A stretch of 64,000 nucleotides of DNA from Patescibacteria group bacterium UBA6017. Lineage in GTDB: Bacteria > Patescibacteriota > Saccharimonadia > UBA4664. Positions 4,100 to 63,885 of this stretch are shown piece by piece. The translations under genes were made by a program, and so were the position numbers. The notes under the pieces are model-generated. The model saw only the letters and a program-made list of their open reading frames with translations, was not told where the DNA came from and made no database searches. Position 1 is the stretch's first letter; each line of letters begins with the position of its first letter. The stretch lies in the NCBI GenBank assembly GCA_002429485.1, contig DIZX01000015.1, positions 187,073-251,072 of the forward strand, read 5' to 3'.

Positions 4100-5098
4100 C
4101 TACGCCAAATTACTCCAGCTCAAGTCTGGCTTCACCCGTTCAATCAACTTAGCCGTCTGGCCGATACTCTTGCTCGCCACACTCTGGTCGTTCACAAAGT
4201 TCTCCATATCCTGCTCGCGGTGGCCATCGATCCCGTAGGTGGCAATACAGCCCGTGCGCTTCACCATCGCGCTCAAAGTCGGCTCCGCCCGTCGCGCCAT
4301 GCCGTTCATGGGGTTTCCCATCAGCTCCACGCCGTCAATCCGCCCGTCGCGCAGCATACCCTCGAGCATCTCGGCATCGATCTTGCGCGATGCCGTGTAC
4401 CAATGAGCCACAATCGCCACCCCGCCAGCCCCGCGGATTAACTTCACGGCACTATCGAGATCAATCGAATACAAATAATCCACATAAATCCCTGGAATAA
4501 ACGCATCATCGCTCAAAAATAATCGGTACGGATAATCGCTCGGCGGCCGCTCCATCATATGCGCGTAATCCATGGCCACCTTGGCGCTAGCCACCGCCGC
4601 CTTCTCCATTTCGGCCTTCATGACTTCAATAACTGCCGTATTTTCCACGTGAGAATTCAACGCCCGCACGATATGCGGCCGCCCGACCGTCTCGCCGCCC
4701 GAAGCCGCCAGGCAATCCGCAACGCTTATATTAAAACCAAGCCCCTTGAGATTGCCCACGATCCGCTCCATGCGTTCGATCCGCGCCGCTACCGCCTTGG
4801 TGCAATGTGCCAGTAACTCTGAATTAGTCGGATCCGTAAACAATCCCAGTATGTGCAAACTGCTCGTCACCCCGCCGCCCAATTCCACCGGCAACCCGCT
4901 CGAAATCTCGCATCCCAACAGCCACTTCACGGTGCCTTGATAGTCCTTCAAAATCTTCAGGTCAGCCGCGCTCGGCAGCGTATCGTGATCCGTAAACGCC
5001 ACCACGCTGACCTTATTGCGCCGCGCCGCCTCGAGCACTTCCAGATATGTTTGCGTACCATCCGAAGCAGTCGTGTGATTGTGTAATGATTCGTACAT
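4100..5098 (-). CDS. PHP-domain metal-dependent phosphoesterase
   Basis: N-terminus HNHTTASDGTQTYLEVLEAARRNKVSVVAFTDHD is a typical PHP (histidinol-phosphatase-like) signature. Confidence 0.75.
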   Translation of the reverse strand: MYESLHNHTTASDGTQTYLEVLEAARRNKVSVVAFTDHDTLPSAADLKILKDYQGTVKWLLGCEISSGLPVELGGGVTSSLHILGLFTDPTNSELLAHCTKAVAARIERMERIVGNLKGLGFNISVADCLAASGGETVGRPHIVRALNSHVENTAVIEVMKAEMEKAAVASAKVAMDYAHMMERPPSDYPYRLFLSDDAFIPGIYVDYLYSIDLDSAVKLIRGAGGVAIVAHWYTASRKIDAEMLEGMLRDGRIDGVELMGNPMNGMARRAEPTLSAMVKRTGCIATYGIDGHREQDMENFVNDQSVASKSIGQTAKLIERVKPDLSWSNLA

Positions 5099-7066: not shown

Positions 7067-7693
7067 TCAAAAATGATGAGCCAGTCGACGCCAGATACTG
7101 CTTAATCGATATCTCCACCCCCTCGGATAAGCGCTCAATACCGCTTCCAGAGCTGCCGGCAGCCGATCAATCGAGCTCGGGAAGCGATTTTTGCCCATAA
7201 AGTGCCCGCCCCCCATCACAATCACCTCCCGCGCCCTCAGCGCAATCGCCAACTGCTGACTTCGTTTGGGGGCAACCATGGGATCATTGTCCGAATAAAT
7301 CACTACTCGCGTTTTCGTCCGCTCAATAATCCGATCAAATTCCAGCGGCGGATCAAACAAAGCCCCGGGCTTATCCATAATCCCATCACCAAACCCCGCC
7401 ACCAGCACTAGTCCGGCAACTTTCACGTCCAACGGATAATCATTAATAAACCGCAGCGTCGTGGGCGTACCGAGAGAATAGCCCACCAAAGTCGTATTCC
7501 CGTCGAGCTCCCCCGCCGCGTCACTCAGAGTTTTTAGCCACAAGTCGAGCTTCGGCACCCGCGGGTTCGGCATAGCCGGAGTTATTACTTCAAACCCTCG
7601 CGCCTCAAGCTCGCCCGCCAACCAACTAATCCACAGATTTGCCGGGCTATCATTCCATCCGTGCGTAATTATTACTTTTCGTTTGGCTGCCAT
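7067..7693 (-). CDS. alpha/beta hydrolase, YdeN/RBBP9-like serine hydrolase
   Basis: VIITHGW...LVGYSLGT (GxSxG nucleophile elbow)...VIYSDNDPMV...GGHF. Confidence 0.65.
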   Translation of the reverse strand: MAAKRKVIITHGWNDSPANLWISWLAGELEARGFEVITPAMPNPRVPKLDLWLKTLSDAAGELDGNTTLVGYSLGTPTTLRFINDYPLDVKVAGLVLVAGFGDGIMDKPGALFDPPLEFDRIIERTKTRVVIYSDNDPMVAPKRSQQLAIALRAREVIVMGGGHFMGKNRFPSSIDRLPAALEAVLSAYPRGWRYRLSSIWRRLAHHF

Positions 7694-11486: not shown

Positions 11487-11638
11487 CCGAGCTAGACCAG
11501 CTCAGCCCAACCTTCCCTCATCGCGGAAGGTTGGGCACCAACCCGAGCGCTCAAATGCACTTGAGTCTTCAGGTTGAAAAGCTACCAAACCATAAGCGCT
11601 TCATGGCGTAAAACCCGCTCAAATGCTACTATTTAACA

Positions 11639-14234: not shown

Positions 14235-15017
14235 TTAGGCGATCGCTGGCTGAAAAAAGTGATGCGAAGCATGCAATTCTACCCTGGCATCATTGCGCAG
14301 AACCTGCCTCACTTCACCCCTCACCCGGGCCAACCCGCGGTGATTTATCTGCAGGTCCTTCGTGGCCTCGCGCGGCACCGAAATCTCCAGATGCCGATGG
14401 CCATGCTTAATCTCGGACAATGGTGGATAATAGCCCGTTTTAGCATCAATCGTCAGCAATGCTCCCTGCCATTCACCCACGAAATCATATCCCTTGAGAT
14501 CCTCCTCCACCGTGCCATATCGCACCGACCTGAGCTCAGGTAGACCCTGCAGTGCCGCGTGCAACGCCACCTCCGACGCTGCTCCGGTAATCTCCCCGCG
14601 CGCCCACTCGTCACGCCCCGAGCTGGCCGAAGCCAACCAATCCATCAAATCATCGCGCGAAAAATTATGCCCACACGATTCAATCAATCCGCGAAGCAAA
14701 TGATTGTAGCTGCATGCCTGATGGCGCAGCATTTCGTAATGGTGCCCTCGCTCCGTGAGCTCTTCATGATTCAATCCGCCGTGGTGCAGCGCCTCCCGAT
14801 CGTCATCGAGCATATCCTGAATCACCGCCTGCCGCCGAGCCAATGCCATCACCTCGCCCAATCGCTTCAATTCCGGATGATTCTCATCCTCCACAAATCG
14901 TTCCACCACTAGGTTTATAGCCTCGTGCAAGCCCAGCTTGCCGCGCTGAAGCTCAATGAGCAGGATGATGTCGTTCGCTCGTCGGGAAAAATCTTCAGCT
15001 GCCAAAGCTTTATTCAT
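14235..15017 (-). CDS. hypothetical protein (260 aa)
   Basis: Clean ORF downstream of the groEL terminator. Its C-terminal region GYDFVGEWQGALLTIDAKTG resembles a PD-(D/E)xK-like D...(D/E)xK spacing; this is weak. Confidence 0.5.
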   Translation of the reverse strand: MNKALAAEDFSRRANDIILLIELQRGKLGLHEAINLVVERFVEDENHPELKRLGEVMALARRQAVIQDMLDDDREALHHGGLNHEELTERGHHYEMLRHQACSYNHLLRGLIESCGHNFSRDDLMDWLASASSGRDEWARGEITGAASEVALHAALQGLPELRSVRYGTVEEDLKGYDFVGEWQGALLTIDAKTGYYPPLSEIKHGHRHLEISVPREATKDLQINHRGLARVRGEVRQVLRNDARVELHASHHFFQPAIA

Positions 15018-39676: not shown

Positions 39677-39692
39677 GCTGGCGGAGAGGGAG
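39677..39692 (-). repeat. 15 to 16-nt direct repeat of the 3' end of tRNA-Ser(CGA) (TGGCGGAGAGGGAGAT on the plus strand)
   Basis: Matches 39806-39821 (the tRNA 3' end including CCA) over 15 consecutive nt, about 115 nt beyond the tRNA 3' end. Confidence 0.5.
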
Positions 39693-39771
39693 ATATCGTC
39701 GCTGCGCGACCTCCGCTCACTGCGTTCTCTACGCCGAACTAGCCTGAGTCCGAATCAACCTAGCGCCAAAG

Positions 39772-39805: not shown

Positions 39806-39895
39806 TGGCGGAGAGGGAGAGATTCGAACTCTCGGAAGCCTTGCGGCCTCACCGCATTTCGAGTGCGGCGCACTAGTCCACTATGCGACCTCTCC
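39806..39895 (-). tRNA. tRNA-Ser (anticodon CGA)
   Basis: Manual fold: acceptor GGAGAGG, anticodon loop CTCGAAA, long variable arm, T-arm GAGAG-TTCGAAT-CTCTC, CCA encoded. Confidence 0.9.
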
Positions 39896-40896: not shown

Positions 40897-40943
40897 TATG
40901 GCGCAAGCAGCGCCCAGTGTACAATATGCGTGTCAGCCTACCT

Positions 40944-45822: not shown

Positions 45823-45844
45823 GCCAGCCCCCTTTAGATCCCGA

Positions 45845-45876
45845 GAAACACCGCCTCACCGGCGGTGTTTCTATTT
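45845..45876 (+). terminator. intrinsic terminator GAAACACCGCC-tcacc-GGCGGTGTTTC + TATTT after hsp20
   Basis: 11-bp perfect stem 23 nt after the stop. Confidence 0.6.
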
Positions 45877-45897: not shown

Positions 45898-45926
45898 AAA
45901 AAAGGACCCTTGCGGGTCCTTTTTTG
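45898..45926 (-). terminator. bidirectional terminator AAAAAGGACCC-ttgc-GGGTCCTTTTT 3' of the pilin-like operon
   Basis: Perfect stem with flanking A and T runs, 12 nt downstream of the stop at 45939. Confidence 0.6.
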
Positions 45927-45938
45927 GTCGGAGGGTGA

Positions 45939-46388
45939 TTAGTTGGCTTTGGATAAAGCATTAATCACGAACTGGACGAGGGCGAAGGATATCACCGCCA
46001 CCACTATACCGACAATGGCATAAAGGATTGTGTCTTTGGCGGCCGTAACGTTCTTGGAGTCACCGTTCGAGACCACGTAGCGCAAGCCGCCGATGATCAA
46101 GTAGATCACCGAGATAGCACCGACGAGGAAGATCAAGGTGTTGGCAATCACGGTGAAAATACCGCCCTGTCCGAACAAGTTATCCTTCTGGCTGCCACCC
46201 TGAGAGCATGAAGCGCCAGCGGTCAGCGGATCAGTAGCGTTGCCACTCGCGTCACAGTTTGATGCAGCTCCGAAGGCCGGGGAGGCCGAAATCATCACAC
46301 CCGCAACGGATGCGGATCCTACTCCCAGCACCAGGACGAGCGCCTGGAGCGAGAGCGCAACTTTCTTTAATAATCTCTCTATACCCAT
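45939..46388 (-). CDS. T4SS pilin-like protein, paralog 1 (VirB2/TrbC-like: signal peptide plus two C-terminal hydrophobic helices)
   Basis: N-terminal signal peptide, a Cys pair (NCDAS...ASCSQ), then IFLVGAISVIYLIIGGLRYVVSNGDSKNVTAAKDTILYAIVGIVVAVISFAL. It has its own promoter (TTGCTA-17-TAATGT at 46427-46455) and an AAGGAG RBS. Confidence 0.6.
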   Translation of the reverse strand: MGIERLLKKVALSLQALVLVLGVGSASVAGVMISASPAFGAASNCDASGNATDPLTAGASCSQGGSQKDNLFGQGGIFTVIANTLIFLVGAISVIYLIIGGLRYVVSNGDSKNVTAAKDTILYAIVGIVVAVISFALVQFVINALSKAN

Positions 46389-46456
46389 TAGAATCTAATC
46401 TCCTTAATAAAATTCAATTTGATGTGACATTAGCATAAGCGTTAACGACTAGCAAT

Positions 46457-46780
46457 CTACTTTCCTATAGTAGTCGTCACGAACTGCACTATCGCATACG
46501 CTACGATTGCTACGATTACACCTATGATAGCGTACATGATGGTGTCCTTGGCGGCCGTCACGTTCTTCGAATCACCGTTGGAGGTCACGTAACGCAACCC
46601 GCCGAGAATAATCATAATGACAGATAGGGCACCGATAAGTATCGTCAAAAAGTTGGCGACATTTGCAAAGATATGAGCCAAGCTCACATTGTTGCAATTA
46701 GCCCCACTCGCACAAGCCTGATTTGCTCCGGCCGTAATATTACTCGCTGCTGTTCCCAGTAAAACAACCAAACTACTCAT
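46457..46780 (-). CDS. T4SS pilin-like protein, paralog 2
   Basis: Signal peptide, Cys pair (CASGANC), and the shared core LGGLRYVTSNGDSKNVTAAKDTIMYAIIGVIVAIVAYAI. AGGAGA lies 6 nt before the ATG. Confidence 0.6.
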   Translation of the reverse strand: MSSLVVLLGTAASNITAGANQACASGANCNNVSLAHIFANVANFLTILIGALSVIMIILGGLRYVTSNGDSKNVTAAKDTIMYAIIGVIVAIVAYAIVQFVTTTIGK

Positions 46781-46800
46781 TTACATTCTCCTAAATTATG

Positions 46801-47106
46801 CTATTTCCCGAGCGCCGCAGCGATTCCGTCCACGATCGCGTAAGCCATGATCGCCAGTATCACCCCAGCAATTGCATATTGGAGCGAATCCCGCCCCTGC
46901 TGATACCGCTTGGCATCACCAGCCGATAAAGTGATTTGCAGCCCTCCTACAATCACGAATATTACCGCCAGCATGCCAATTATTATTATAAGCGTATGCG
47001 CAATACTTGCGAACCCCGTACTCAAATTTGTAGCGGAACTCGGGCAATTGTTGATCGTTTTGCACGAAATACCGTATAGCACCGCGACCAACCAACCGCC
47101 CATCAT
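46801..47106 (-). CDS. T4SS pilin-like protein, paralog 3
   Basis: Cys pair CKTINNC; core VGGLQITLSAGDAKRYQQGRDSLQYAIAGVILAIMAYAI. Its start abuts the stop of paralog 4. Confidence 0.55.
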   Translation of the reverse strand: MMGGWLVAVLYGISCKTINNCPSSATNLSTGFASIAHTLIIIIGMLAVIFVIVGGLQITLSAGDAKRYQQGRDSLQYAIAGVILAIMAYAIVDGIAAALGK

Positions 47107-47451
47107 CTAAAAGTTCCCCGAAATAAACGTAACTGCGGCATACGACATAATAATTAATATTAGGCCCGTTACCGTATTGATGAGGATTTCTTTCGCCCGT
47201 TTCACCCTGGACGGATCTCCTGTCGAGGTAATGTAGTAAATTGCCGCCACTAATATTGCAATGATCGCCAGCGAACCGGATATCGCAATCAAAATTCGCA
47301 TTATGTTCCCGATAATCTTTGCAACCTCTGTCAGTGAGGAAATCTGAATTTCATTCTTCGAATTACACAGGCCGTCGTAAAGACTCGGAAGCACCCCGTG
47401 CGTGGTACCGCAGTCCGCGGCGGCCATATGAAATAGCTGCAAAAAGATCAT
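47107..47451 (-). CDS. T4SS pilin-like protein, paralog 4
   Basis: Cys pair (ADCG...GLCNS); core IYYITSTGDPSRVKRAKEILINTVTGLILIIMSYAAV. Its start abuts the stop of paralog 5. Confidence 0.55.
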   Translation of the reverse strand: MIFLQLFHMAAADCGTTHGVLPSLYDGLCNSKNEIQISSLTEVAKIIGNIMRILIAISGSLAIIAILVAAIYYITSTGDPSRVKRAKEILINTVTGLILIIMSYAAVTFISGNF

Positions 47452-47928
47452 CTACAGCAACCCTCCGGGTACCAGGAAGTTCAAGATCGCCACCATCATC
47501 AAGTAGAGTACCAGCGCGGTAACGGCGTTCATTATTCGTCCCTTAGCGTTCTTCACGTTCGACGGATCGCCGCCCGAAACAATGTACTGAACACCCGCGA
47601 TCACCAGGACCAATATAATTATCCCGCCAATCAGGCTGTTTACCAGAAAAAGTATCTGCTTAAGGTAAAAAATGATTGCTCCGCCGGTCTTGGGATCGTT
47701 CGGAACCTCCACCTGACCCGACTTGCATGATCCCTGAGATCCACCGGCTGCGATCGGCAGCGCTAAACAGACCGGACCGCCGCCCCCGGTAATATCGGCC
47801 GGCGCCTTTGCTGCGGCGCCCACTTCAGCTGGCACCACATACGCTTGGCTACCCAAAACAACAACGTCCAGTGGCGCCGATACAACAGCCGCAAACGCAA
47901 CAAACAGGAATAAACTTAAGCGCTTCAT
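47452..47928 (-). CDS. T4SS pilin-like protein, paralog 5 (first gene of the pilin operon)
   Basis: Signal peptide, Cys pair (PVCLAL...GSCKSG); core VQYIVSGGDPSNVKNAKGRIMNAVTALVLYLMMVAIL. Confidence 0.55.
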   Translation of the reverse strand: MKRLSLFLFVAFAAVVSAPLDVVVLGSQAYVVPAEVGAAAKAPADITGGGGPVCLALPIAAGGSQGSCKSGQVEVPNDPKTGGAIIFYLKQILFLVNSLIGGIIILVLVIAGVQYIVSGGDPSNVKNAKGRIMNAVTALVLYLMMVAILNFLVPGGLL

Positions 47929-47935
47929 TAGGTGT

Positions 47936-47965
47936 ATTGTACCGACCCGCCCACCTAAAAGTCAA
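47936..47965 (-). promoter_or_regulatory. promoter for the pilin operon: TTGACT-18 nt-TACAAT with the -10 ending 7 nt before the ATG (probably leaderless)
   Basis: On the minus strand: TTGACT tttaggtgggcgggtcgg TACAAT acaccta ATG. Confidence 0.5.
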
Positions 47966-48002
47966 AAACTCTAATGCTTTGAACGCGGAGGTTATTTAAG
48001 AT

Positions 48003-48037
48003 TTGACTTCATTTATATAGCATAAGCGTTGTACAAT
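48003..48037 (+). promoter_or_regulatory. promoter for the T4SS structural operon: extended -10 TGTACAAT ending 7 nt before ATG 48045 (probably leaderless); weak -35
   Basis: TTGACT at 48003-48008 (23-nt spacer, so a weak -35) and TGTACAAT at 48030-48037. The 13-nt motif TAGCATAAGCGTT at 48018-48030 is also present at 46431-46443. Confidence 0.45.
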
Positions 48038-48044
48038 ATGACAC

Positions 48045-51000
48045 ATGAGACGTAGGTGGTTCGGAATATTCCTCATGGCGTGGGCGTTTATGTCCCCACT
48101 GTTTGCGTTCGCCCCGGCGGCAGAAGCCGCCCCGCCCTCCGAGTGCCACTGGACTGACCCAAACCACATCGTTTGTGATGGCACCAGCACCTACACCAAG
48201 ACTGCATTCCAAAATACAACCATCTACCGATCGGATATAAGCCACTTTATTGCAAATATCAACGCCGCCCATACGGCTGGAACATTCACCGAAATCACCC
48301 AATCGCCCCAGACGGCCAATACATACCCGATGGCGCTTGGCAGCCCGGCTAATGCCACAACTACACCCAAAAATCCGCCGTCTACCTCCCTTGCCTGCTC
48401 CTGGACAGACAAAACACTCATTCAGTGCGGCACCGAACAATTTAAATTTATTCATATAGCAGCGCAAAACCAAGATCGCTGGGTCAATAGTGCCACCAGC
48501 TTCATTGCCAACGTATCGGCCAACAAGACCGCCGCCACCCATTACACCATGCTTCAATCGGGATTGCCCGGACCTACCAATCCGGTCACCCTTAGCAATC
48601 CGGCCAACGCCACCAAAAACCCAGCTGCTCCTGGCGGAGGTCCAACCGCCGATAAACCCGTCAACTGTGAAGCAGGCGCCTTCACTTGGCTCGTCTGCGG
48701 CAGCATCAAAATCCTCGTCGGTGTCGTCGACACCATTACTAACGATGTTATCGTTCCGTTCCTCAAAGAACCCCCGCTCGACAAAAACCAAAAAGAATTT
48801 GCCCCAGTCTATGCCATCTGGTCAGCATTTCGAAACGTTGCCAGCGTCTTCTTCATCCTCGTCTTCTTCCTGGTGATTATCGGCACCGCCCTCGGCTTCG
48901 ACAACTACACCATTAAGAAGGTTCTCCCGCACCTGGTAGCAGGCGCCATTTTGATGCCGTTCTCGTGGTATCTATGTGCCTTTTTGGTCGATATCGGCAA
49001 TGTGCTTGGCCAAGGCATCGTCGTACTCATGACTAATATTATTATTATCGGCACGCCCAAAGTAGATCTCACCTCGAATTTCACCACCTTATTCCTCGGT
49101 GTCGGCGGGGGAGTAGGCACTTTCGCATTAATCGGTGCCGCAACCATCCTGGGGTTCTGCGCCATAATCTCGCTGCTAATTGCCTTCGCCGGCGTATTTC
49201 TGACCCTGGTATTCCGCAAAATATTAATTCTGTTTCTGATCATCATCAGCCCGTTTGCCCTCCTGGCCTGGGTCCTGCCCAACACCGAGAAGTGGTTCAA
49301 AGAATGGTGGCAAAACTTCCTCAAGCTCGTTATGCTCTATCCCATCATCATGATGCTGATCGAGGTTGGCCGTCTGTTCTCCGCCACTGCCACCGCCGCC
49401 TCCCCCGGCGCCATCTGTGCCGCCGGCGATACGGCCTGTCAGGCGACAGCCTGGGTAGCACCATTCTTCGCCATCGCCGGACTCACCGTCCCGCTCTTTA
49501 TCATCCCGTTTGCCTTCAAGTTTGCCGGCAAGGGTCTCGCGGCGGGCAGCGGCGCCATCAACAAGCTTGGCGGCGGCATCGACAAGAAATACGGAAAGGA
49601 CAGCGCCCTCGCCAAGGACCTCGCCGAAGGGCGCCAGCGCAAGAATGTGGCAGCTGCCAAGATTGCCGAAAGCAACGCCAAGAGCGCTCATGGCCTTCAC
49701 AAGACCGCCCTGAACCGCAAAGCCGCCATGAACTGGCGCCGAGCCGGGTTGGCGGGCAGTACCGGCAGCGCCAAGCTGAGGCGCGGTGAGGCCGTCGGCA
49801 AAGCTGATAAAGAATTAAGTACGATTGATGCCGATAACCGTATGTCCAAAGAAGCAGATCCGGAAGACTTCCGGCAGCGCCGCCTCTCCACCACGCAGAG
49901 CATCCTCGACGAGAAGGCTGCCAACCGCGGTGCCCGCCAAGGTGTATTAGAAGGTTACAATGGCGCGGGCGCTCCAGGCGCACGAGACAAGCAGCACCAG
50001 GCTCGCATCAACTCCCGCGACAATTATCTGGCTGCAGCCGGAAAAGCCAAGGGCGAGATCGAAGACGACGCTCTCAACGAACGCGAACGAGTCAATCGCA
50101 CCGGCAATTACGTCAGCCCATCCATGAAAATGGCCGCCGCTCACGATACAGCCGCCCTTTCGGCCTCGGATGCTCGCGGAACAGCCAGAGGCATCGTTGA
50201 GGGCGGGGCTGAGGCTGAGCGTATCATTCAAAGTCAAACCGGCTTAAACGCCGCTGATGCCCGCGATCTTCGGCTCCGTAATGTAGCTAAAGCCAAAAGC
50301 AACATCCAAAGCGCTTCGGCAGTCACGACCCAACAAACTGCTAACACCAATGTAACCGCCAATGCCGAGCTCGATCGCCAGCAGATCGCAGCCGCCGGCG
50401 GCCATATGTCCCCCCAGCAAGCCCGCAGTCTACGTATGCAGAACCTATCCGCCGCCACTCACTCTCAAGAGCGTGAAAAGATTGGTGCCGCCGAAGGTCA
50501 GATCGATGCCCGAAATGCCATCACCGCCTCCGCCGGCCAGGAAAACATGGGCCGCCTGGTAACTGGTGAGCGGATGGCCGCCCGCGAGCAGCTCTCCAGC
50601 GCCCGGACCTTGCGCGAAGCCCGCGCCGACTTCCAAGCCACTCCCGAAGGCTATATGTCGACCGCTGACTCACTCAAGGCCAGCCGTTTGGAAGCCAACA
50701 AGCGTATAGGTGCCAGCATAGGCGCCCAAAAACAAGAGATCGCCCAGGAGCAGGAAGATATCGCCAAAGCCCTGCGCGACGGTAACCCTGCCCCCAGACT
50801 GGCCGACCACGTAATCGCCGGCACCGAAGCCGCCAAATCTAAGACCGCTCAAGACTCCGCCCAGCGCCTGGCCGCCGTCAACGCCGTCCGTACCGGCACC
50901 GCTGCCAGCACCAGACAGCACACCGACGCCGCCGTCTATACGGCCGAGCGCAGCACCGCCATCGCCGACGCCGCCGTCAAAGCCACCGCCAGCGCCGTTA

Positions 51001-52586
51001 ACGCCCAAATCGCCGCCGTTGCCGGGGAGAAGGGCTTATCTACAGCCGCCGCCGCCCAAGCCGTCCGCACCGATAATCTCAAAGTCGCTGCGCGCGCCAA
51101 AGAAATAACTACGAACGCAGAATTTGCTACTACTCCCGCAAAAGACAGAGGCGTCATCAAGGCGTATGAAGCCGCCATCGAACAGGCCCGAGAAGCCCCC
51201 CTCCGAAAAGCCAAGGTAGCAGCCTTTGAGCGTGCCGATGAAAATGCCCGCACCGACACCTATGAACAGTCCTATCAAATCGCAAAAGCCGCCAAAATGA
51301 CGGACAAGGCAGGCAAGATCGTGAAAGACGCCGCAGGCAACGAGGTTCTCAAGTTCACCGAAGGCGAAGCCCGAGACTATGCCGCAAAAGCCAGAGATAC
51401 GCTCGGCGCCGAAAGGGGCCAAAAAGCTGGTCGCGAGGCAGCCGACAAAATCACAGCCGTAGGCAAGTTGAATTCCGCAGATGCCGAACGAGCCGTGATC
51501 GCATCCTCCGCAACAGCCGCAGAAGAATTAGCCATGCGCACAGAAGCCTCCTCGCAAGCCCAAACTGCCGCCCTCAATCAGGCCGTTGAATCGTCTGCCA
51601 CAAAACTCGATGCTAGAGAGCGCCTAGCCGTCCAGACCGAAGGTTCCGTTGCAACACTAGCTGCCGAATCTGGAGCCGCCAGAGCCCGCTACGACCTTAC
51701 TCGTCCCGGACAATCGTTAAACCAATCCTATCAAGCTGCCGAAGACCACGTAGTAAAGTCCGAACGGCTAAAAATAATAGGTGATCGCGTCGAAAAAGCC
51801 GGCAATGAAGACTTTACCTTTATGGGCAAAGACGGAGTGCCACACTCCGACAGTGTCAAAAACGCCGACTTAGGCCCAGACGGCGTCAAAGCCCAGGACG
51901 ATGAAATCAGGAGGTTGCTCAAAGATGGTTACCAAGACCCCGAAAACGAAGATCGCGCCCTCGCGCTCGTAGGCAGACTGTCGTTAACGGGCAGCGGCAG
52001 AGAAAGAGTTCGCGCAATTCAACGTGACCTATTTGGAAGAACTGAAGACCAATTGATCGATCCCACCAGATTTAAGGGCCGGGCCAGTGAGCTCTGGGAG
52101 ATCGTGCAGTCAAAAAACAAATCTGATGTATCCAAGGACTTCTTCATGCCCGAACCTGCCGCCTATGACGGCTACAGCTCATCCGAGTTTGGTCGCTCTG
52201 GTTGGGGAGAAAAGAAAAATTACTTCGAATTCGCCAAAAGAGTAGACAAAGATAATATTTACGACGAATCTACTCGAAATATCCAACAAGCCCTAACCAA
52301 CGCTCAAGTTACAAAGGAACTGAATTCCGATGACTACGCTCAAATGTGGATCTATATGCAAGACCCCAAGGCCCTAACTGCTCTGGCCACACGAGACACA
52401 GACGCAGGGAAAGGCAAAACAGGCCTCGACATCGTAAAGAAGATATATGCGTCAGGTGGCGCGGCTGAAGCCGAAAAGAGATGGTTAGAAAAACAAGGCG
52501 GCGACCCAAGCAGGAATATTCTCAAACAATACGCAGATTCTGGCTTCACTGTTTTACCGCCAGTGCCACCCCCTCCGACCCCCTAG
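48045..52586 (+). CDS. VirB6/TrbL-like T4SS inner-membrane protein with an N-terminal Cys-pair repeat domain and an about 1000-aa Ala/Lys/Glu-rich C-terminal extension
   Basis: 1513 aa. It has a signal peptide; three C-x9-C motifs (CHWTDPNHIVCDG, CSWTDKTLIQCGT, CEAGAFTWLVCGS); a polytopic core of about 8 TM helices between residues 230 and 500; then a low-complexity Ala-rich helical tail. Confidence 0.7.
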   Translation: MRRRWFGIFLMAWAFMSPLFAFAPAAEAAPPSECHWTDPNHIVCDGTSTYTKTAFQNTTIYRSDISHFIANINAAHTAGTFTEITQSPQTANTYPMALGSPANATTTPKNPPSTSLACSWTDKTLIQCGTEQFKFIHIAAQNQDRWVNSATSFIANVSANKTAATHYTMLQSGLPGPTNPVTLSNPANATKNPAAPGGGPTADKPVNCEAGAFTWLVCGSIKILVGVVDTITNDVIVPFLKEPPLDKNQKEFAPVYAIWSAFRNVASVFFILVFFLVIIGTALGFDNYTIKKVLPHLVAGAILMPFSWYLCAFLVDIGNVLGQGIVVLMTNIIIIGTPKVDLTSNFTTLFLGVGGGVGTFALIGAATILGFCAIISLLIAFAGVFLTLVFRKILILFLIIISPFALLAWVLPNTEKWFKEWWQNFLKLVMLYPIIMMLIEVGRLFSATATAASPGAICAAGDTACQATAWVAPFFAIAGLTVPLFIIPFAFKFAGKGLAAGSGAINKLGGGIDKKYGKDSALAKDLAEGRQRKNVAAAKIAESNAKSAHGLHKTALNRKAAMNWRRAGLAGSTGSAKLRRGEAVGKADKELSTIDADNRMSKEADPEDFRQRRLSTTQSILDEKAANRGARQGVLEGYNGAGAPGARDKQHQARINSRDNYLAAAGKAKGEIEDDALNERERVNRTGNYVSPSMKMAAAHDTAALSASDARGTARGIVEGGAEAERIIQSQTGLNAADARDLRLRNVAKAKSNIQSASAVTTQQTANTNVTANAELDRQQIAAAGGHMSPQQARSLRMQNLSAATHSQEREKIGAAEGQIDARNAITASAGQENMGRLVTGERMAAREQLSSARTLREARADFQATPEGYMSTADSLKASRLEANKRIGASIGAQKQEIAQEQEDIAKALRDGNPAPRLADHVIAGTEAAKSKTAQDSAQRLAAVNAVRTGTAASTRQHTDAAVYTAERSTAIADAAVKATASAVNAQIAAVAGEKGLSTAAAAQAVRTDNLKVAARAKEITTNAEFATTPAKDRGVIKAYEAAIEQAREAPLRKAKVAAFERADENARTDTYEQSYQIAKAAKMTDKAGKIVKDAAGNEVLKFTEGEARDYAAKARDTLGAERGQKAGREAADKITAVGKLNSADAERAVIASSATAAEELAMRTEASSQAQTAALNQAVESSATKLDARERLAVQTEGSVATLAAESGAARARYDLTRPGQSLNQSYQAAEDHVVKSERLKIIGDRVEKAGNEDFTFMGKDGVPHSDSVKNADLGPDGVKAQDDEIRRLLKDGYQDPENEDRALALVGRLSLTGSGRERVRAIQRDLFGRTEDQLIDPTRFKGRASELWEIVQSKNKSDVSKDFFMPEPAAYDGYSSSEFGRSGWGEKKNYFEFAKRVDKDNIYDESTRNIQQALTNAQVTKELNSDDYAQMWIYMQDPKALTALATRDTDAGKGKTGLDIVKKIYASGGAAEAEKRWLEKQGGDPSRNILKQYADSGFTVLPPVPPPPTP

Positions 52587-52659
52587 CCCTCTAGCCCTCT
52601 AGCCCGCCGACCCATATTAGCGTAAGCTTAATGTGAGATAGAGGTGGAGTTCCCGAAAC

Positions 52660-53469
52660 ATGGGCCAGTATAAGGTGCCGCAAAACGTAGAGGCCGAGGA
52701 CAAGATTCTTGGCCCGTTAACTTTCAAGGAGTTTATCTACTTCTTGATGGGTTTTGGTTGGGCCGCGCTGAGCTTTGCCATCTTCCGTCAAATTCCCGTC
52801 CTCATGGTCGTCATCGGCTTTCCGCCCACCACGCTATTGCTGCTGCTGGCCTTCTACAACCGCGACGGCCAAAGCTTTGAGCAGCTCCTGGTAGCCATGG
52901 TGGGTTTCTTTGCCACCTCCCGCCGCCGCGCCTGGTCCAAAGATGACATCATCGAAACCTTCCACGTGGAGGCCACCGTCATCGCCGCCGAGGCCACCCA
53001 GCGCAATTCGGCCGAAGTCCGCGGTGAGCTCGAAAAACTCGCCAACCTCATCGATTCCCGCGGCTGGAACCACCCCCAGGAGCCCGAACCCTCACAGATC
53101 ATGCCATCTATCGCCCACACCGACCGCATCGTGCCCACGCCGCCGCCAACCCCCGGTGAAGTACCCACCGATATCCTCGACCTGCAGCAAAGTCCGCTGG
53201 CCCAAAACCTTGCCGAGCTACTACGCGCGGCAGCCGAAGACGTTCGCGAAGAGGCTATCCAGCAAATGGCCGGCAAGCCAGTCCGGCCCGTAAAAGGCGC
53301 TCCAGCCCCCACAAGCATAAGCGGCGTGACAGCCGCGTCGCCGAACGATATACTTCAATTAGCAACGCAGAGTGATGAGTTAAGTGTGACGCAGATTGCC
53401 GCCCAGGCCACCCGCCGGGTTGCGCTGCCAAACGGACAAACCTTGGAGATTCCCGTCAATGGCAGCTAA
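52660..53469 (+). CDS. PrgI-family (VirB3-like) T4SS membrane protein
   Basis: N-terminus KVPQNVEAEDKILGPLTFKEFIYFLMGFGWAALSFAIF matches the PrgI-family pattern (VPKDI..YEEK..GLT.RQ), followed by two TM helices. It overlaps the next gene by 11 nt. Confidence 0.65.
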   Translation: MGQYKVPQNVEAEDKILGPLTFKEFIYFLMGFGWAALSFAIFRQIPVLMVVIGFPPTTLLLLLAFYNRDGQSFEQLLVAMVGFFATSRRRAWSKDDIIETFHVEATVIAAEATQRNSAEVRGELEKLANLIDSRGWNHPQEPEPSQIMPSIAHTDRIVPTPPPTPGEVPTDILDLQQSPLAQNLAELLRAAAEDVREEAIQQMAGKPVRPVKGAPAPTSISGVTAASPNDILQLATQSDELSVTQIAAQATRRVALPNGQTLEIPVNGS

Positions 53470-60558: not shown

Positions 60559-60834
60559 CTACCCTCGCAGCTGTCCGATACTGATTGCCAGCCGCTTCGG
60601 CCGCTCACCAGCCAAATTCTCTACAAGGTTTAGCAGTTCCACCTGCCGCATCCGCAGCTCTCCCGCCACCCCCGCGCTGGGCGTCTCCAGCCGCAGTGTT
60701 CCCTGGTGCAGCTGCCGGGCCCGCACCTTCTGTGGGTACCAGTCGTCCAACACCTTTTGGATCCCCACCAGCACATCCTCACGGTCCATCCCCAGCTTCG
60801 CCCTCAAGCGTGCAAAATAATCCGGCTCAAGCAT
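60559..60834 (-). CDS. DUF721 (DciA-like) protein
   Basis: About 92 aa; LVGIQKVLDDWYPQKVRARQL...LRLETPSAGVAGELRMRQVELLNLVENLAGERPKRLAISIG. It overlaps recF (ATGCTTGA). The tracked ORF extends to 60897. Confidence 0.55.
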   Translation of the reverse strand: MLEPDYFARLRAKLGMDREDVLVGIQKVLDDWYPQKVRARQLHQGTLRLETPSAGVAGELRMRQVELLNLVENLAGERPKRLAISIGQLRG

Positions 60835-61894
60835 GTGCTGCCTCCGTAGAAATAATTTTGTGAGCGGTCTTAAACTCCCGTGCGATAGCGTCAGCATCGG
60901 TCGTCGTCACCATCGTCTGATAACCTTCCAGCCGGTTGAGCAGGTACCCGCGCCGATATTTATCGAGCTCGCTAAACACATCGTCGAGCAATAGTAGGGG
61001 ACGCACCCCCGTGTGCTCCTCGGCATACCCCAGCTCCGCCAGCTTCATCGCCAGCACCAACGTGCGAGTCTCACCCCGTGAGGCCACCTTGGTAATGTCA
61101 TTATTTTTAAAGTAAATCCGAAAATCTTCCCGGTGTGGCCCAATCGTGGTAAATCCCGCCCCCAAATCCCGCGTGAGATTACGCGCCAATGCCTCCAGAA
61201 ATTCATCTTCATACACCCCCTGAACGCTTGGAATATACTCAAACCCCACCTCCACCGTCTCACCTGCAATATCCCGGTAGAGCAGGGGAGTGGCCCCCGA
61301 CAGTACCCGCAGCAGCTCTTGACGCTGACGGTATATTTCCACCGCCAATTCAGCCAACTTAATGTCCCAGGTAAATATTTGCTGCCGAATCCGCTCCATG
61401 TCGAAACCGTCCAGCAATGCGTTGCGTTGCTTCAGTACCCGCCGGTATTGCTGCAAAGTCGTCAAATAAGTCCGATCCGTTTGACTCAATAAAAAGTCCA
61501 GATACCGCCGCCGGGCCTCGGGCGCGCCCGCTACCAACTCCAAGTCGGTCGGTTCAAACAGTGTCACCTGGATCTGGCCTACGTGCCCCACCAGAGTACG
61601 TTTCACCCCGTCGTGAGTAATCTTTTTTTCAGTTGTTTCGCCGGCCGCGTAGCCAATCGCATACTCCGTGACGTCGGTATGAGCCACCACCCGAAAATGA
61701 TCCTGCCCGTGCCGCACCAGATCACGGTCCTTGGCTCGAAAGCTCTTCGTCGAGGCCAGCACGTACAAACTCTCCAGTAAATTGGTCTTGCCGCTGGCAT
61801 TCGGGCCCACCACTAACGTCACATCCGGATGCAGCTCAAACTGAGCCGTGTCGTACGAGCGAAAATTTGTCAGCTCCAAGCTCTGTATCCTCAT
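60827..61894 (-). CDS. recF: DNA replication and repair protein RecF
   Basis: MRIQSLELTNFRSYD...VGPNASGKTNLLESL (Walker A) and a C-terminal signature and Walker B region. Confidence 0.95.
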   Translation of the reverse strand: MRIQSLELTNFRSYDTAQFELHPDVTLVVGPNASGKTNLLESLYVLASTKSFRAKDRDLVRHGQDHFRVVAHTDVTEYAIGYAAGETTEKKITHDGVKRTLVGHVGQIQVTLFEPTDLELVAGAPEARRRYLDFLLSQTDRTYLTTLQQYRRVLKQRNALLDGFDMERIRQQIFTWDIKLAELAVEIYRQRQELLRVLSGATPLLYRDIAGETVEVGFEYIPSVQGVYEDEFLEALARNLTRDLGAGFTTIGPHREDFRIYFKNNDITKVASRGETRTLVLAMKLAELGYAEEHTGVRPLLLLDDVFSELDKYRRGYLLNRLEGYQTMVTTTDADAIAREFKTAHKIISTEAAHA

Positions 61895-62054
61895 AGACTC
61901 ATTGTATCTGATTCAGATTTGTTTACCTCCCCAAGCATAACCTTGACAGAATTGTACATTTAAACTATTATATAACTTGAACGAGCGTGCGCCGGTACGC
62001 CATTCGTTATCTCACCCGAGATTGACAACCCAGTTCCCATTGGAGGGAAGAATC

Positions 62055-62672
62055 ATGACGCTCAGGTCGTTTTTTCGCACTCTGAAGCTTGTTGCAGCGA
62101 TCGGCGTCATCGCGACGCTAGCTGCTGCTTGTGCATCAGGTACCACCAAGTCTGTCGCGCCCTCACCGGCGCGATCAACTTCGGCTGCATCCGCCGAACC
62201 AGCTGCGTCGATTCCCAACCTCGCCCAGCTCCCGACGGATCGCGAGTGCCGCTTCATCTCCCAAGATGATGCAGCCAAGGCCCTCGGATACAACCCAGGA
62301 CTCCCGCACATCGACAAGTCTGGGGTCATCTCAGGCACCGCCAAACGGTGTGCGTTCGGGTCTCCGGCGTACTTCAACCCCAGGCCGTACCTCGACATCA
62401 GCTTCATGAAGTTCGCCTCACCGATGGTTGCCAACCTGACCCTCGGCCTGATTCGCGAAAATCTGATCGCGACCTACGTTCCCGGTACCGTCAAAGATGT
62501 CGCAATCGGAGATTCCTCCGTGTACATGCCCTTCACCGATGGTGGTACCAGCTACGTCTCCAGCCACGGCATGATCGTCATGATCCTGTACTACCGACGC
62601 GGCACTACCGCCGAAGGTAACAAGACCGTGCTCAACGACCTCGCACGAGCGGTGGTACGCCATCTCTCATAG
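62055..62672 (+). CDS. lipoprotein (DUF3558-like, Actinobacteria-type)
   Basis: GGAGGG lies 6 nt before ATG 62055. Signal peptide plus lipobox LAAAC-ASG, two conserved-looking Cys (DRECRF, AKRCAF). Clearly GC-richer than the flanking genes. The tracked ORF starts earlier at 61977. Confidence 0.6.
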   Translation: MTLRSFFRTLKLVAAIGVIATLAAACASGTTKSVAPSPARSTSAASAEPAASIPNLAQLPTDRECRFISQDDAAKALGYNPGLPHIDKSGVISGTAKRCAFGSPAYFNPRPYLDISFMKFASPMVANLTLGLIRENLIATYVPGTVKDVAIGDSSVYMPFTDGGTSYVSSHGMIVMILYYRRGTTAEGNKTVLNDLARAVVRHLS

Positions 62673-62775
62673 CTCCAACTACGCCCCCGACGGGGCCCCC
62701 ACCCATCACAAGAAAGTGAGGCCACGTCGGGGGCCTCACCATGTCAACGCAATTATTTCGAATATTTAGTGGGTT

Positions 62776-63885
62776 TTAAGTCCGCAACGGCATCACAATG
62801 TGAAGATAATCATCCGTCGCATTTTCACCGGCCGGCGATATCACGCACGGGCTCAGCTTGCCGCTGATTGCCACCGTCACCATCGGGCTCTTCACCGCCG
62901 CCAACGCGTCCGTGAGGTATCGGGCATTCAGCGAAATTTCGCCGTCCTCACCATTAACTTCACATTCGGCCGACGACTTATTGCCGCCCACCTCGGAATC
63001 ATTCGACACCACACTCACTTCGCCCTCAGATTTGATTTCCAACCGAATACTGCCGGCGCTTTCCCTGGCAAATAAACTTGCCACCTTGGTAATTCGTGCC
63101 AGCTCTGCCGTGGCAATATCGAACGATGTCTCGGCGCTCTCGGGGATAATTCTCCGGTAAGGGGGAAACTGCCCCTCGATCAATCTCGACACTACCTCGA
63201 CGTCAGCGATTCTAAACATCACCTGGTTCTCATCCACGTAAACTTCCACGTCACCCTCTGCGTCGCCTAGAAGCTTCACCAGCTCTTGCATCGTGCGAGC
63301 TGGCACGAGGACTGAAAACTCCTTAGGAGCACCCTGGGGCAGCTCTATGCGCTTCTCAGCTAAGCGGTAAGAGTCGGTTGCCACAATAAACAATGATTCA
63401 TCTTCGATATACATATACACCCCGGCCAATACCGGCCTGGCCTCGTCCGCCGATGCCGCCACCACTACCTGGGCCAGCGCATCCCGAAATATCACCGCAT
63501 CCAGTGTCAGCGCGGGGTCGCTCGTGAGTGTCGGGATCAAGGGAAACTCTTCCGCCGAGATCCCGTTGATCTTCGACTCGTAATGAGGGCTCTTGACCGT
63601 CAATACGCTATCCAGCCCATGCAACTCAATATTGCCGTGGGGGAGACTTGATACAAACTCCGCGAATAGGCGAGCAGGCACGGTCAATGATCCCTGCTCC
63701 TCCACCTTCGAACCAATCCAATAATTAATCCCGATCTCGAGATTGGTCGCCGACAATCTCAATCGATTGCCGTCAGTAGCCAATAAAACATTCGCGAGTA
63801 CCGGTAGGCTAGCTCTGGTTGACACTACCCGACCAACGCTGGCGAGAGCTCGAGAGAGATTCTCCTGGGTTAAACTGAGTCTCAA
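62776..63885 (-). CDS. dnaN: DNA polymerase III beta sliding clamp
   Basis: MRLSLTQENLSRALASVGRVVSTRASLPVLANVLLATDGNRLRLSATNLEIGI...; 369 aa. An AT-rich region lies upstream (63886-64000). Confidence 0.95.
   Translation of the reverse strand: MRLSLTQENLSRALASVGRVVSTRASLPVLANVLLATDGNRLRLSATNLEIGINYWIGSKVEEQGSLTVPARLFAEFVSSLPHGNIELHGLDSVLTVKSPHYESKINGISAEEFPLIPTLTSDPALTLDAVIFRDALAQVVVAASADEARPVLAGVYMYIEDESLFIVATDSYRLAEKRIELPQGAPKEFSVLVPARTMQELVKLLGDAEGDVEVYVDENQVMFRIADVEVVSRLIEGQFPPYRRIIPESAETSFDIATAELARITKVASLFARESAGSIRLEIKSEGEVSVVSNDSEVGGNKSSAECEVNGEDGEISLNARYLTDALAAVKSPMVTVAISGKLSPCVISPAGENATDDYLHIVMPLRT

Follow-up and report, generated by a model that had tools for sequence, protein, structure and literature searches.

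The T4SS locus and its divergent promoters

The window, by which is meant the whole 64,000-nt stretch of DNA analysed here, belongs to a member of the Saccharimonadia (Saccharibacteria/TM7) and has a G+C content of 55.8%. A T4SS locus of the monoderm type spans 45.9–59.8 kb of the window. The locus is chromosomal and apparently carries no relaxase. The genes are as follows.

45939–47928, minus strand: five tandem T4SS_pilin genes (PF18895)
47928 down to 46457, minus strand: pilin operon of four genes
47452–47928, minus strand: first pilin gene and head of the operon, PF18895 T4SS_pilin, ATG at 47928–47926, signal peptide MKRLSLFLF...
45939–46388, minus strand: distal pilin gene (pilin paralog 1), a separate transcription unit
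48045–52586, plus strand: VirB6/TrbL-like gene, 1513 aa, homologs with PF19590, M1 invariant in the alignment; heads the plus-strand T4SS operon
52660, plus strand: ATG of prgI, part of the T4SS locus
54193, plus strand: VirB4-like ATPase gene, part of the T4SS locus
58550, plus strand: M23 peptidase gene, which together with an 827-aa gene forms the downstream part of the T4SS locus

Monoderm-type T4SS loci with arrays of VirB2-like pilins have been described in Patescibacteria (PMC12102498). The locus in the window shows the same tandem T4SS_pilin array, TrbL/VirB6-like protein, PrgI, VirB4-like ATPase and M23 peptidase. The cis elements reported here are additional to that description, in which the words "promoter" and "operon" do not occur. 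The nearest locus found, L001 (JBBRSS010000005.1), encodes a VirB6-like protein 78% identical to that of the window. This protein has a very long low-complexity C-terminal extension rich in Ala, Gln, Lys and Glu, which ends in a proline run in the window, and its length among relatives varies from 810 to 2469 aa (the extension is found e.g. in L003, L004, L007 and L012).

Directly after the T4SS locus, at window positions 60827–63885 on the minus strand, are recF, with a leaderless-type promoter, and a probable dnaN. The recF and dnaN genes usually flank the replication origin. As they adjoin the T4SS locus, the locus lies beside the replication-origin region. A T4SS near this region has been noted for some Patescibacteria (PMC12102498). 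At the other end, two perfect 12-bp hairpins (45844–45872 and 45898–45925) are found where the HSP20 and distal pilin genes converge, and the second, AAAAAAGGACCC/GGGTCCTTTTTT, has the appearance of an intrinsic terminator acting in both directions.

The region between the ATG codons of the first pilin gene and the VirB6-like gene is 116 bp long and reads as two back-to-back sigma-70-type promoters.

47936–47941, minus strand: pilin-operon -10 box TACAAT, followed by the 7-nt spacer ACACCTA (47929–47935) and the ATG; position kept in relatives
47960–47965, minus strand: pilin-operon -35 box TTGACT, 18 nt from the -10 box; 10/12 matches in a promoter scan
48032–48037, plus strand: VirB6-like operon -10 box TACAAT, followed by the 7-nt spacer ATGACAC (48038–48044) and the ATG at 48045
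48008–48013, plus strand: weak -35-like TTCATT, 18 nt from the VirB6 -10 box, in a block conserved with L001; its -35 role is predicted

The pilin promoter thus reads TTGACT-N18-TACAAT-N7-ATG on the minus strand, a canonical sigma-70 layout that an independent promoter scan scored at 10/12, and the VirB6 promoter reads TTCATT-N18-TACAAT-N7-ATG on the plus strand with a weak -35. The first-pass annotation had placed a TACAAT hexamer 7 nt upstream of each of the two start codons, and this geometry is read exactly on both strands. The AGTCAA of the pilin -35 is conserved in L001, L003, L004, L006, L009, L012, L024, L025 and L030. The TG of an extended -10 is absent both at the VirB6 promoter of the window (gTTG-TACAAT) and at the pilin-operon promoter. 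With neither a good -35 box nor a proper TGn, the VirB6 promoter of the window looks weak alone and may therefore depend to a greater extent on whatever binds the 10-bp element described below.

The sequence GTACAATA is present in three copies in the window vs 0.48 expected. The third copy (40919–40926, plus strand) serves as the -10 region in a promoter that precedes tRNA-Ser(tga) by 18 nt, and its context, TGTACAATATG, is identical to the context in the VirB6 promoter.

Probable leaderless start sites in the window and in related loci

The position of the two -10 boxes was taken in the first-pass annotation to mean that transcription starts at or next to the A of each ATG. Several features of the window support this in silico: the genome-wide enrichment of the spacing, the absence of SD sequences, the ATG starts, the signal-peptide N-termini, the canonical -35 box of the pilin promoter and the conservation of the spacing in relatives. 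A TAnnnT with a spacer of 6–7 nt is found before 13 of 67 crude open reading frame starts, as compared with 1.9% of 1730 control ATGs (binomial p = 4e-10). All 13 of these genes start with ATG and just one also displays an SD-like word. They include dnaG, tsaD, sua5, femAB, exoIII, recF and an ABC ATPase gene, and the start codons are confirmed by Pfam domains that begin at residues 1–23. SD sequences are themselves enriched at the other genes of the window (21/67 vs 10%, p = 1e-6) and are present at internal operon genes, namely the internal pilin genes, prgI and virB4.

No SD sequence is present upstream of either divergent ATG, where the spacers are ACACCTA and ATGACAC. Neither gene has an in-frame start upstream, and M1 is invariant in the alignment with homologs. 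Both N-terminal sequences are signal-peptide-like, consisting of M(K/R)R... and then a hydrophobic stretch, and both begin at these ATGs.

The spacing was followed in a comparison set of 33 related loci from genomes and metagenomes, all of which were retrieved by way of a T4SS gene. In about 29 loci with VirB6 homologs, a TAnnnT is situated 6 nt (16 loci), 7 nt (about 7 loci) or 9 nt (5 loci) from the ATG, and the start of the protein is conserved as M(K/R)RRW.... The first pilin gene of the relatives keeps the arrangement -35/N17–18/-10/N6–7/ATG even as the spacer sequences have diverged.

A different arrangement is found in the more distant L008, L010, L014 and L017/L018, where the leaderless pilin promoter diverges from a gene of 800–890 aa. 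This gene has a GTG start (VFT..IWKR) positioned 8 nt after a -10 box (TTGACA-N17-TAnnnT), and it is possibly leaderless, or nearly so, with initiation at the GTG.

The two TACAAT hexamers might instead be coincidental, with the real promoters situated further upstream and producing conventional leaders. The TTGACT at 48003–48008, upstream of the plus-strand gene, could be read in this way. As a candidate -35 box for the VirB6 gene this hexamer was rejected, since it is separated from TACAAT by 23 nt and is not conserved in L001; it also shows no -10 partner. The lack of an SD sequence before both ATGs, a spacing kept in about 29 loci and the enrichment of the same geometry genome-wide also argue against upstream promoters, which are considered very improbable.

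Leaderless transcription is thus the best-supported reading of both TACAAT boxes, and it is well supported in silico. Transcription from both boxes would most likely begin no more than 1 nt away from the A of the respective ATG. In the proposed mechanism, RNA polymerase would start at these positions from sigma-70-type promoters, both first genes would be translated from leaderless mRNAs without an SD sequence, and the internal genes of the operons would be translated by way of their SD sites. Since the same geometry is found at housekeeping genes such as dnaG, tsaD and recF, leaderless starts appear to be a genome-wide habit and not a speciality of the T4SS. The layout would apply to roughly a fifth of the genes of this organism, housekeeping genes included. 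If a fifth or more of the genes of Saccharibacteria are leaderless, as is probable, start-codon annotation can be improved, and the leaderless promoters would offer compact, well-defined native promoters for new genetic systems in the phylum.

The pattern is that of group C of GeneMarkS-2, where the first gene of an operon has a Pribnow box 6–8 nt away and internal genes have SD sequences (PMC6028130). Group C is represented by Actinobacteria and Deinococcus and by the leaderless transcriptome of M. tuberculosis. The window resembles it in the -10 spacing, in the absence of SD sequences at genes with an AUG start, in SD-led internal genes, and in a dual genome pattern where a sizeable fraction of the genes is of the leaderless type. 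However, the organism belongs to the Patescibacteria/Saccharimonadia, all cases here start with ATG, and the pattern here is a prediction from sequence. A literature search found no description of leaderless mRNAs, transcription start sites or promoters in Saccharibacteria/Patescibacteria. Neither leaderless sigma-70 promoters nor divergent pairs of promoters are new as such; here they are reported in silico for a Saccharimonadia T4SS locus and, in a more general way, for the genome that carries it.

A 10-bp element at four places in the T4SS locus

The first-pass annotation had also noted that a 13-nt sequence is shared by the VirB6 promoter and the promoter of pilin paralog 1. Both exact copies of TAGCATAAGCGTT are present, at 46431–46443 and 48018–48030, both read on the plus strand; on the minus strand the sequence is AACGCTTATGCTA. 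The conserved unit is a 10-bp core, GCTnAYGSTA, or in fuller form GCT[T/A/C]A[T/C]G[C/G/T]TA, and the 13-mer represents its reverse complement. The copies of the core and the features of the distal pilin promoter are as follows.

48018–48030: 13-mer in the VirB6 promoter spacer; core GCTTATGCTA on the minus strand, 48027 to 48018; inverted layout common to L001, L021 and L029
47970–47979, plus strand: decayed core copy TCTAATGCTT, abutting the pilin -35 box; relatives show the VirB6 promoter or the distal core copy here
46440–46431, minus strand: core GCTTATGCTA at the distal pilin gene, overlapping the promoter spacer and the start of the -10 box
46427–46455, minus strand: distal pilin promoter, TTGCTA (46455–46450), 17-nt spacer, TGc-TAATGT (46432–46427)
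46405–46400, minus strand: SD sequence AAGGAG of the distal pilin gene, ATG at 46388–46386; predicted 5′ UTR of about 32 nt from a putative transcription start
52627–52618, minus strand: third intact core GCTTACGCTA (plus-strand TTAGCGTAAGCTTAAT), between the VirB6 stop at 52586 and the prgI ATG at 52660

The earlier proposal that the shared sequence is a common regulator-binding site remains plausible, but the unit is the 10-bp core on the minus strand, which is inverted at the VirB6 gene here. The third intact copy at 52618–52627 and the decayed copy at 47970–47979 had been missed. At pilin paralog 1 the shared sequence overlaps the extended -10 box of that gene itself (TGcTAATGT).

A sigma-70-like sequence, TTAACG-N18-TATAGT (46442–46471, plus strand), starts inside the 13-mer and is directed antisense into pilin gene 2, where it overlaps the stop codon. 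This sequence may be an antisense promoter or no more than a chance match.

In related loci the core takes up four fixed places. In the first (class V, about 20 loci) it abuts the VirB6 -10 box in the orientation of the gene, giving GCT(A/C)ATGc-TAnnnT-N6/7-ATG. The second (class P) consists of the distal pilin promoters. In a 10-genome alignment of these, TTTGC, GCTTATG and TA...T are invariant (10/10) and the remaining spacer is variable. The distal pilin promoter of the window has an extended -10 (TGcTAATGT), as do the VirB6 promoters of the relatives. The third is a distal copy: wherever the intergenic region is long, it directly adjoins the -35 box of the pilin operon. The fourth (class G) is a near-invariant 16-mer, TTAGCGTAAGCTT(A/T)A(T/A), situated between the VirB6 stop and prgI in 15 loci: the window (52612–52634), L001, L003–L007, L009, L011, L014, L016, L024–L026 and L030. 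It is missing in L012, where prgI begins only 22 nt after VirB6. The window belongs to a sub-clade with L001, L021 and L029, and the inverted VirB6 copies of these four loci display TA(G/C)CATAAGCGTTG(TG) and then the -10 box, with the 10-bp core intact.

The class G 16-mer is preceded by a C-rich tract or a hairpin, and a conserved GTGAGG follows 12–16 nt downstream. This 16-mer could be a promoter or operator of the prgI operon, or a minus-strand antisense promoter directed into the 3′ end of VirB6.

The core is strongly overrepresented between genes. The window and 29 non-redundant related loci give 54 intergenic matches vs 1.5 ± 1.3 in shuffled sequences, and nearly all of these are at the four syntenic places. 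Within the window, the 614 nt of intergenic DNA in the T4SS locus contain three matches, and the other 6754 nt of intergenic DNA contain none. Matches in coding sequence are loose variants or represent the codons for conserved "AYAI" residues of the pilins. Elsewhere the core is found only before two leaderless genes, a PKD-domain protein gene (L002) and a gene for an unknown 433-aa protein (L006), and both of these are beside T4SS clusters. On the basis of the flanks of the T4SS-retrieved loci and 45 kb of the window, the element thus appears to be confined to the T4SS locus in this clade.

Could the two 13-mers be a functionless repeat, arising by chance or from a recent duplication? A repeat search shows that many repeats of 11–13 nt occur by chance within a stretch of 7.2 kb, and the significance of the 13-mer therefore rests on its location and on the comparison with relatives. 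When the two intergenic regions are aligned locally, the best score is 26 vs 16 ± 2.3 for shuffled sequences, and one of 300 shuffles reached 26; the outer 2–3 nt of the 13-mer differ in L001. These points are consistent with a chance repeat. However, the core is syntenic in about 30 genomes, with VirB6 proteins that share no more than 25–78% identity with that of the window, and the 54 intergenic matches are far above the number expected. A chance or duplication origin appears already contradicted by these comparative data and is given hardly any weight.

The annotation had further listed ATAAGCG(T/C)T at 11588, 39640 and 39905 as recurrences of the motif, and this part does not hold. On the plus strand, ATAAGCGYT is found at 7127, 11592, 39588 and 39637, and the minus strand has copies at 4721 and 24633. 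The sequence around 39905 offers nothing but CATAAGCGG, on the minus strand. About three of the ATAAGCGYT copies are inside coding sequence and none shows a link to the T4SS. The 9-mer is enriched (8 vs 0.85 expected) but was rejected as part of the element, as the copies outside the T4SS locus are in coding or unrelated intergenic sequence and show no fixed distance to a -10 box.

A proposed operator or promoter module

The 10-bp element is conserved apart from polymerase elements and recurs at several promoters of one gene set, as is expected of an operator. A second reading is that GCTnAYGSTA is a lineage-specific module intrinsic to RNA polymerase recognition, i.e. an enlarged extended -10 or "-16" region of the TRTGn type, with the promoters still leaderless. 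Such a module would give strong T4SS promoters without a good -35, and the inverted and prgI-upstream copies would be leftovers or minus-strand promoters. All class V and class P copies are in one register relative to the -10. In at least 26 instances this register is exactly that of an extended -10 box, with TG at -15/-14, and the final TA of the core forms the first two bases of the -10 hexamer. The sequence aTGcTAnnnT is frequent at other promoters of the window, and the more distant L017 keeps only TATGg-TAATCT. The copies upstream of prgI take the minus-strand form GCTTACGC-TAAnnT in 10 of 12 loci, followed by a G-rich discriminator-like sequence. All of these features are compatible with a part of the promoter itself.

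TRTGn is the consensus of the "-16 region" promoters of Gram-positive bacteria. The distal pilin promoter (TATGc-TAATGT) and the VirB6 promoters of the relatives ((A/C)ATGc-TAnnnT) resemble this consensus and the extended -10 (TGn). However, the conservation here extends three bases further upstream, with GCT at -20 to -18, and the 10-mer is also found inverted and away from any -10 box. In the VirB6 promoter of the window, TTG directly abuts the hexamer and there is no TGn.

Other copies do not fit a promoter module. The inverted copies in the window, L001, L021 and L029 are followed on their own strand by TATATA, TAAATA, TAAAAG or TAAATG, and the final T is never present. With no valid hexamer, the core is conserved in these four loci without a role as a -10 extension. 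For the same reason the inverted 13-mer was ruled out as a second minus-strand promoter of the pilin operon. The distal copy beside the pilin -35 box has no possible role as a -10 extension. The GCTn prefix is absent from all non-T4SS promoters of the window, even those with aTGcTAnnnT, and the prgI-upstream copies have CG and not TG. With these points set against the common -10 register, a polymerase-intrinsic module is considered unlikely, though it deserves far more weight than a chance repeat or upstream promoters.

Two leaderless-type promoters elsewhere in the window, at 11616–11632 (plus strand) and 15040–15024 (minus strand), have CGCTCAAA(A)TGCTA in common, immediately ahead of the remaining -10 bases. 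They serve an unrelated ABC ATPase gene (11639) and an unknown 260-aa gene (14235–15017). This sequence resembles the T4SS core but has 2–3 extra bases.

The missing GCTn at other promoters, the copy next to the -35 box, the inverted copies and the CG upstream of prgI thus favour an operator. The symmetry of the element and the gene content of the locus weigh against it. The core shows no consistent dyad or CIRCE-like partner and no clear helical-phase repeat, only an internal repeat of 5–6 nt (GCTTA/GCTA), and a perfect inverted repeat, GCATAAGC-N6-GCTTATGC, is found in L016 alone. Neither a DNA-binding domain nor a candidate gene for a regulator turned up in the loci, as far as their proteins were scanned or carry precomputed annotations. 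With this evidence on both sides, a protein-binding operator that overlaps core promoter elements is tentatively favoured over an intrinsic module, at somewhat below an even chance. A more specific form of this reading is put forward with slightly more reserve: GCTnAYGSTA may be the operator of a dedicated regulator that jointly controls the VirB6 operon, the major-pilin gene, the minor-pilin operon and the prgI-virB4 unit. The element would then serve a putative DNA-binding regulator that co-ordinates T4SS and pilus genes, and this regulator would probably be a repressor because the element overlaps core promoter elements. Considered jointly, leaderless divergent promoters and a 10-bp element acting as a regulator's operator are probably the best explanation of the locus.

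Divergent promoters controlled by operators are known from conjugative T4SS and other loci, such as those with the KorA/KorB operators of IncP plasmids, and from tetR/tetA. The locus in the window is similar in that the promoters are back to back and a short repeated element lies over the core promoter at several units. It differs in that the candidate operator has no clear palindrome and in that the locus is chromosomal, apparently with no relaxase. The T4SS-locus-specific 10-bp element is new as a sequence; as to kind, it is an operator or a promoter module.

Saccharibacteria are obligate epibionts, and a secretion/pilus apparatus is needed for the epibiotic life of Saccharimonadia. To our knowledge, almost no gene regulation has been described in Saccharibacteria. 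An element that is conserved across the class and confined to the T4SS/pilus genes would offer a handle on how the host-contact machinery is switched on and off. The finding becomes more interesting if a dedicated regulator is found. If GCTnAYGSTA is indeed the operator of such a regulator, Saccharimonadia/CPR bacteria would have their first defined cis-regulatory regulon, and this regulon would govern the secretion/pilus apparatus.

An Rfam search of the window found tRNAs alone. Four of these form a cluster at 39.8–42.4 kb, consisting of three tRNA-Ser genes and one tRNA-Arg gene. The cluster holds a partial duplicate of a tRNA-Ser 3′ end (TGGCGGAGAGGGAGA...) at 39679–39700, about 130 nt from the intact gene (39806–39895, minus strand), and this duplicate may be an integration or excision scar. 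Just upstream of it, two copies of ATAAGCGTT (39588 and 39637) flank a hairpin.
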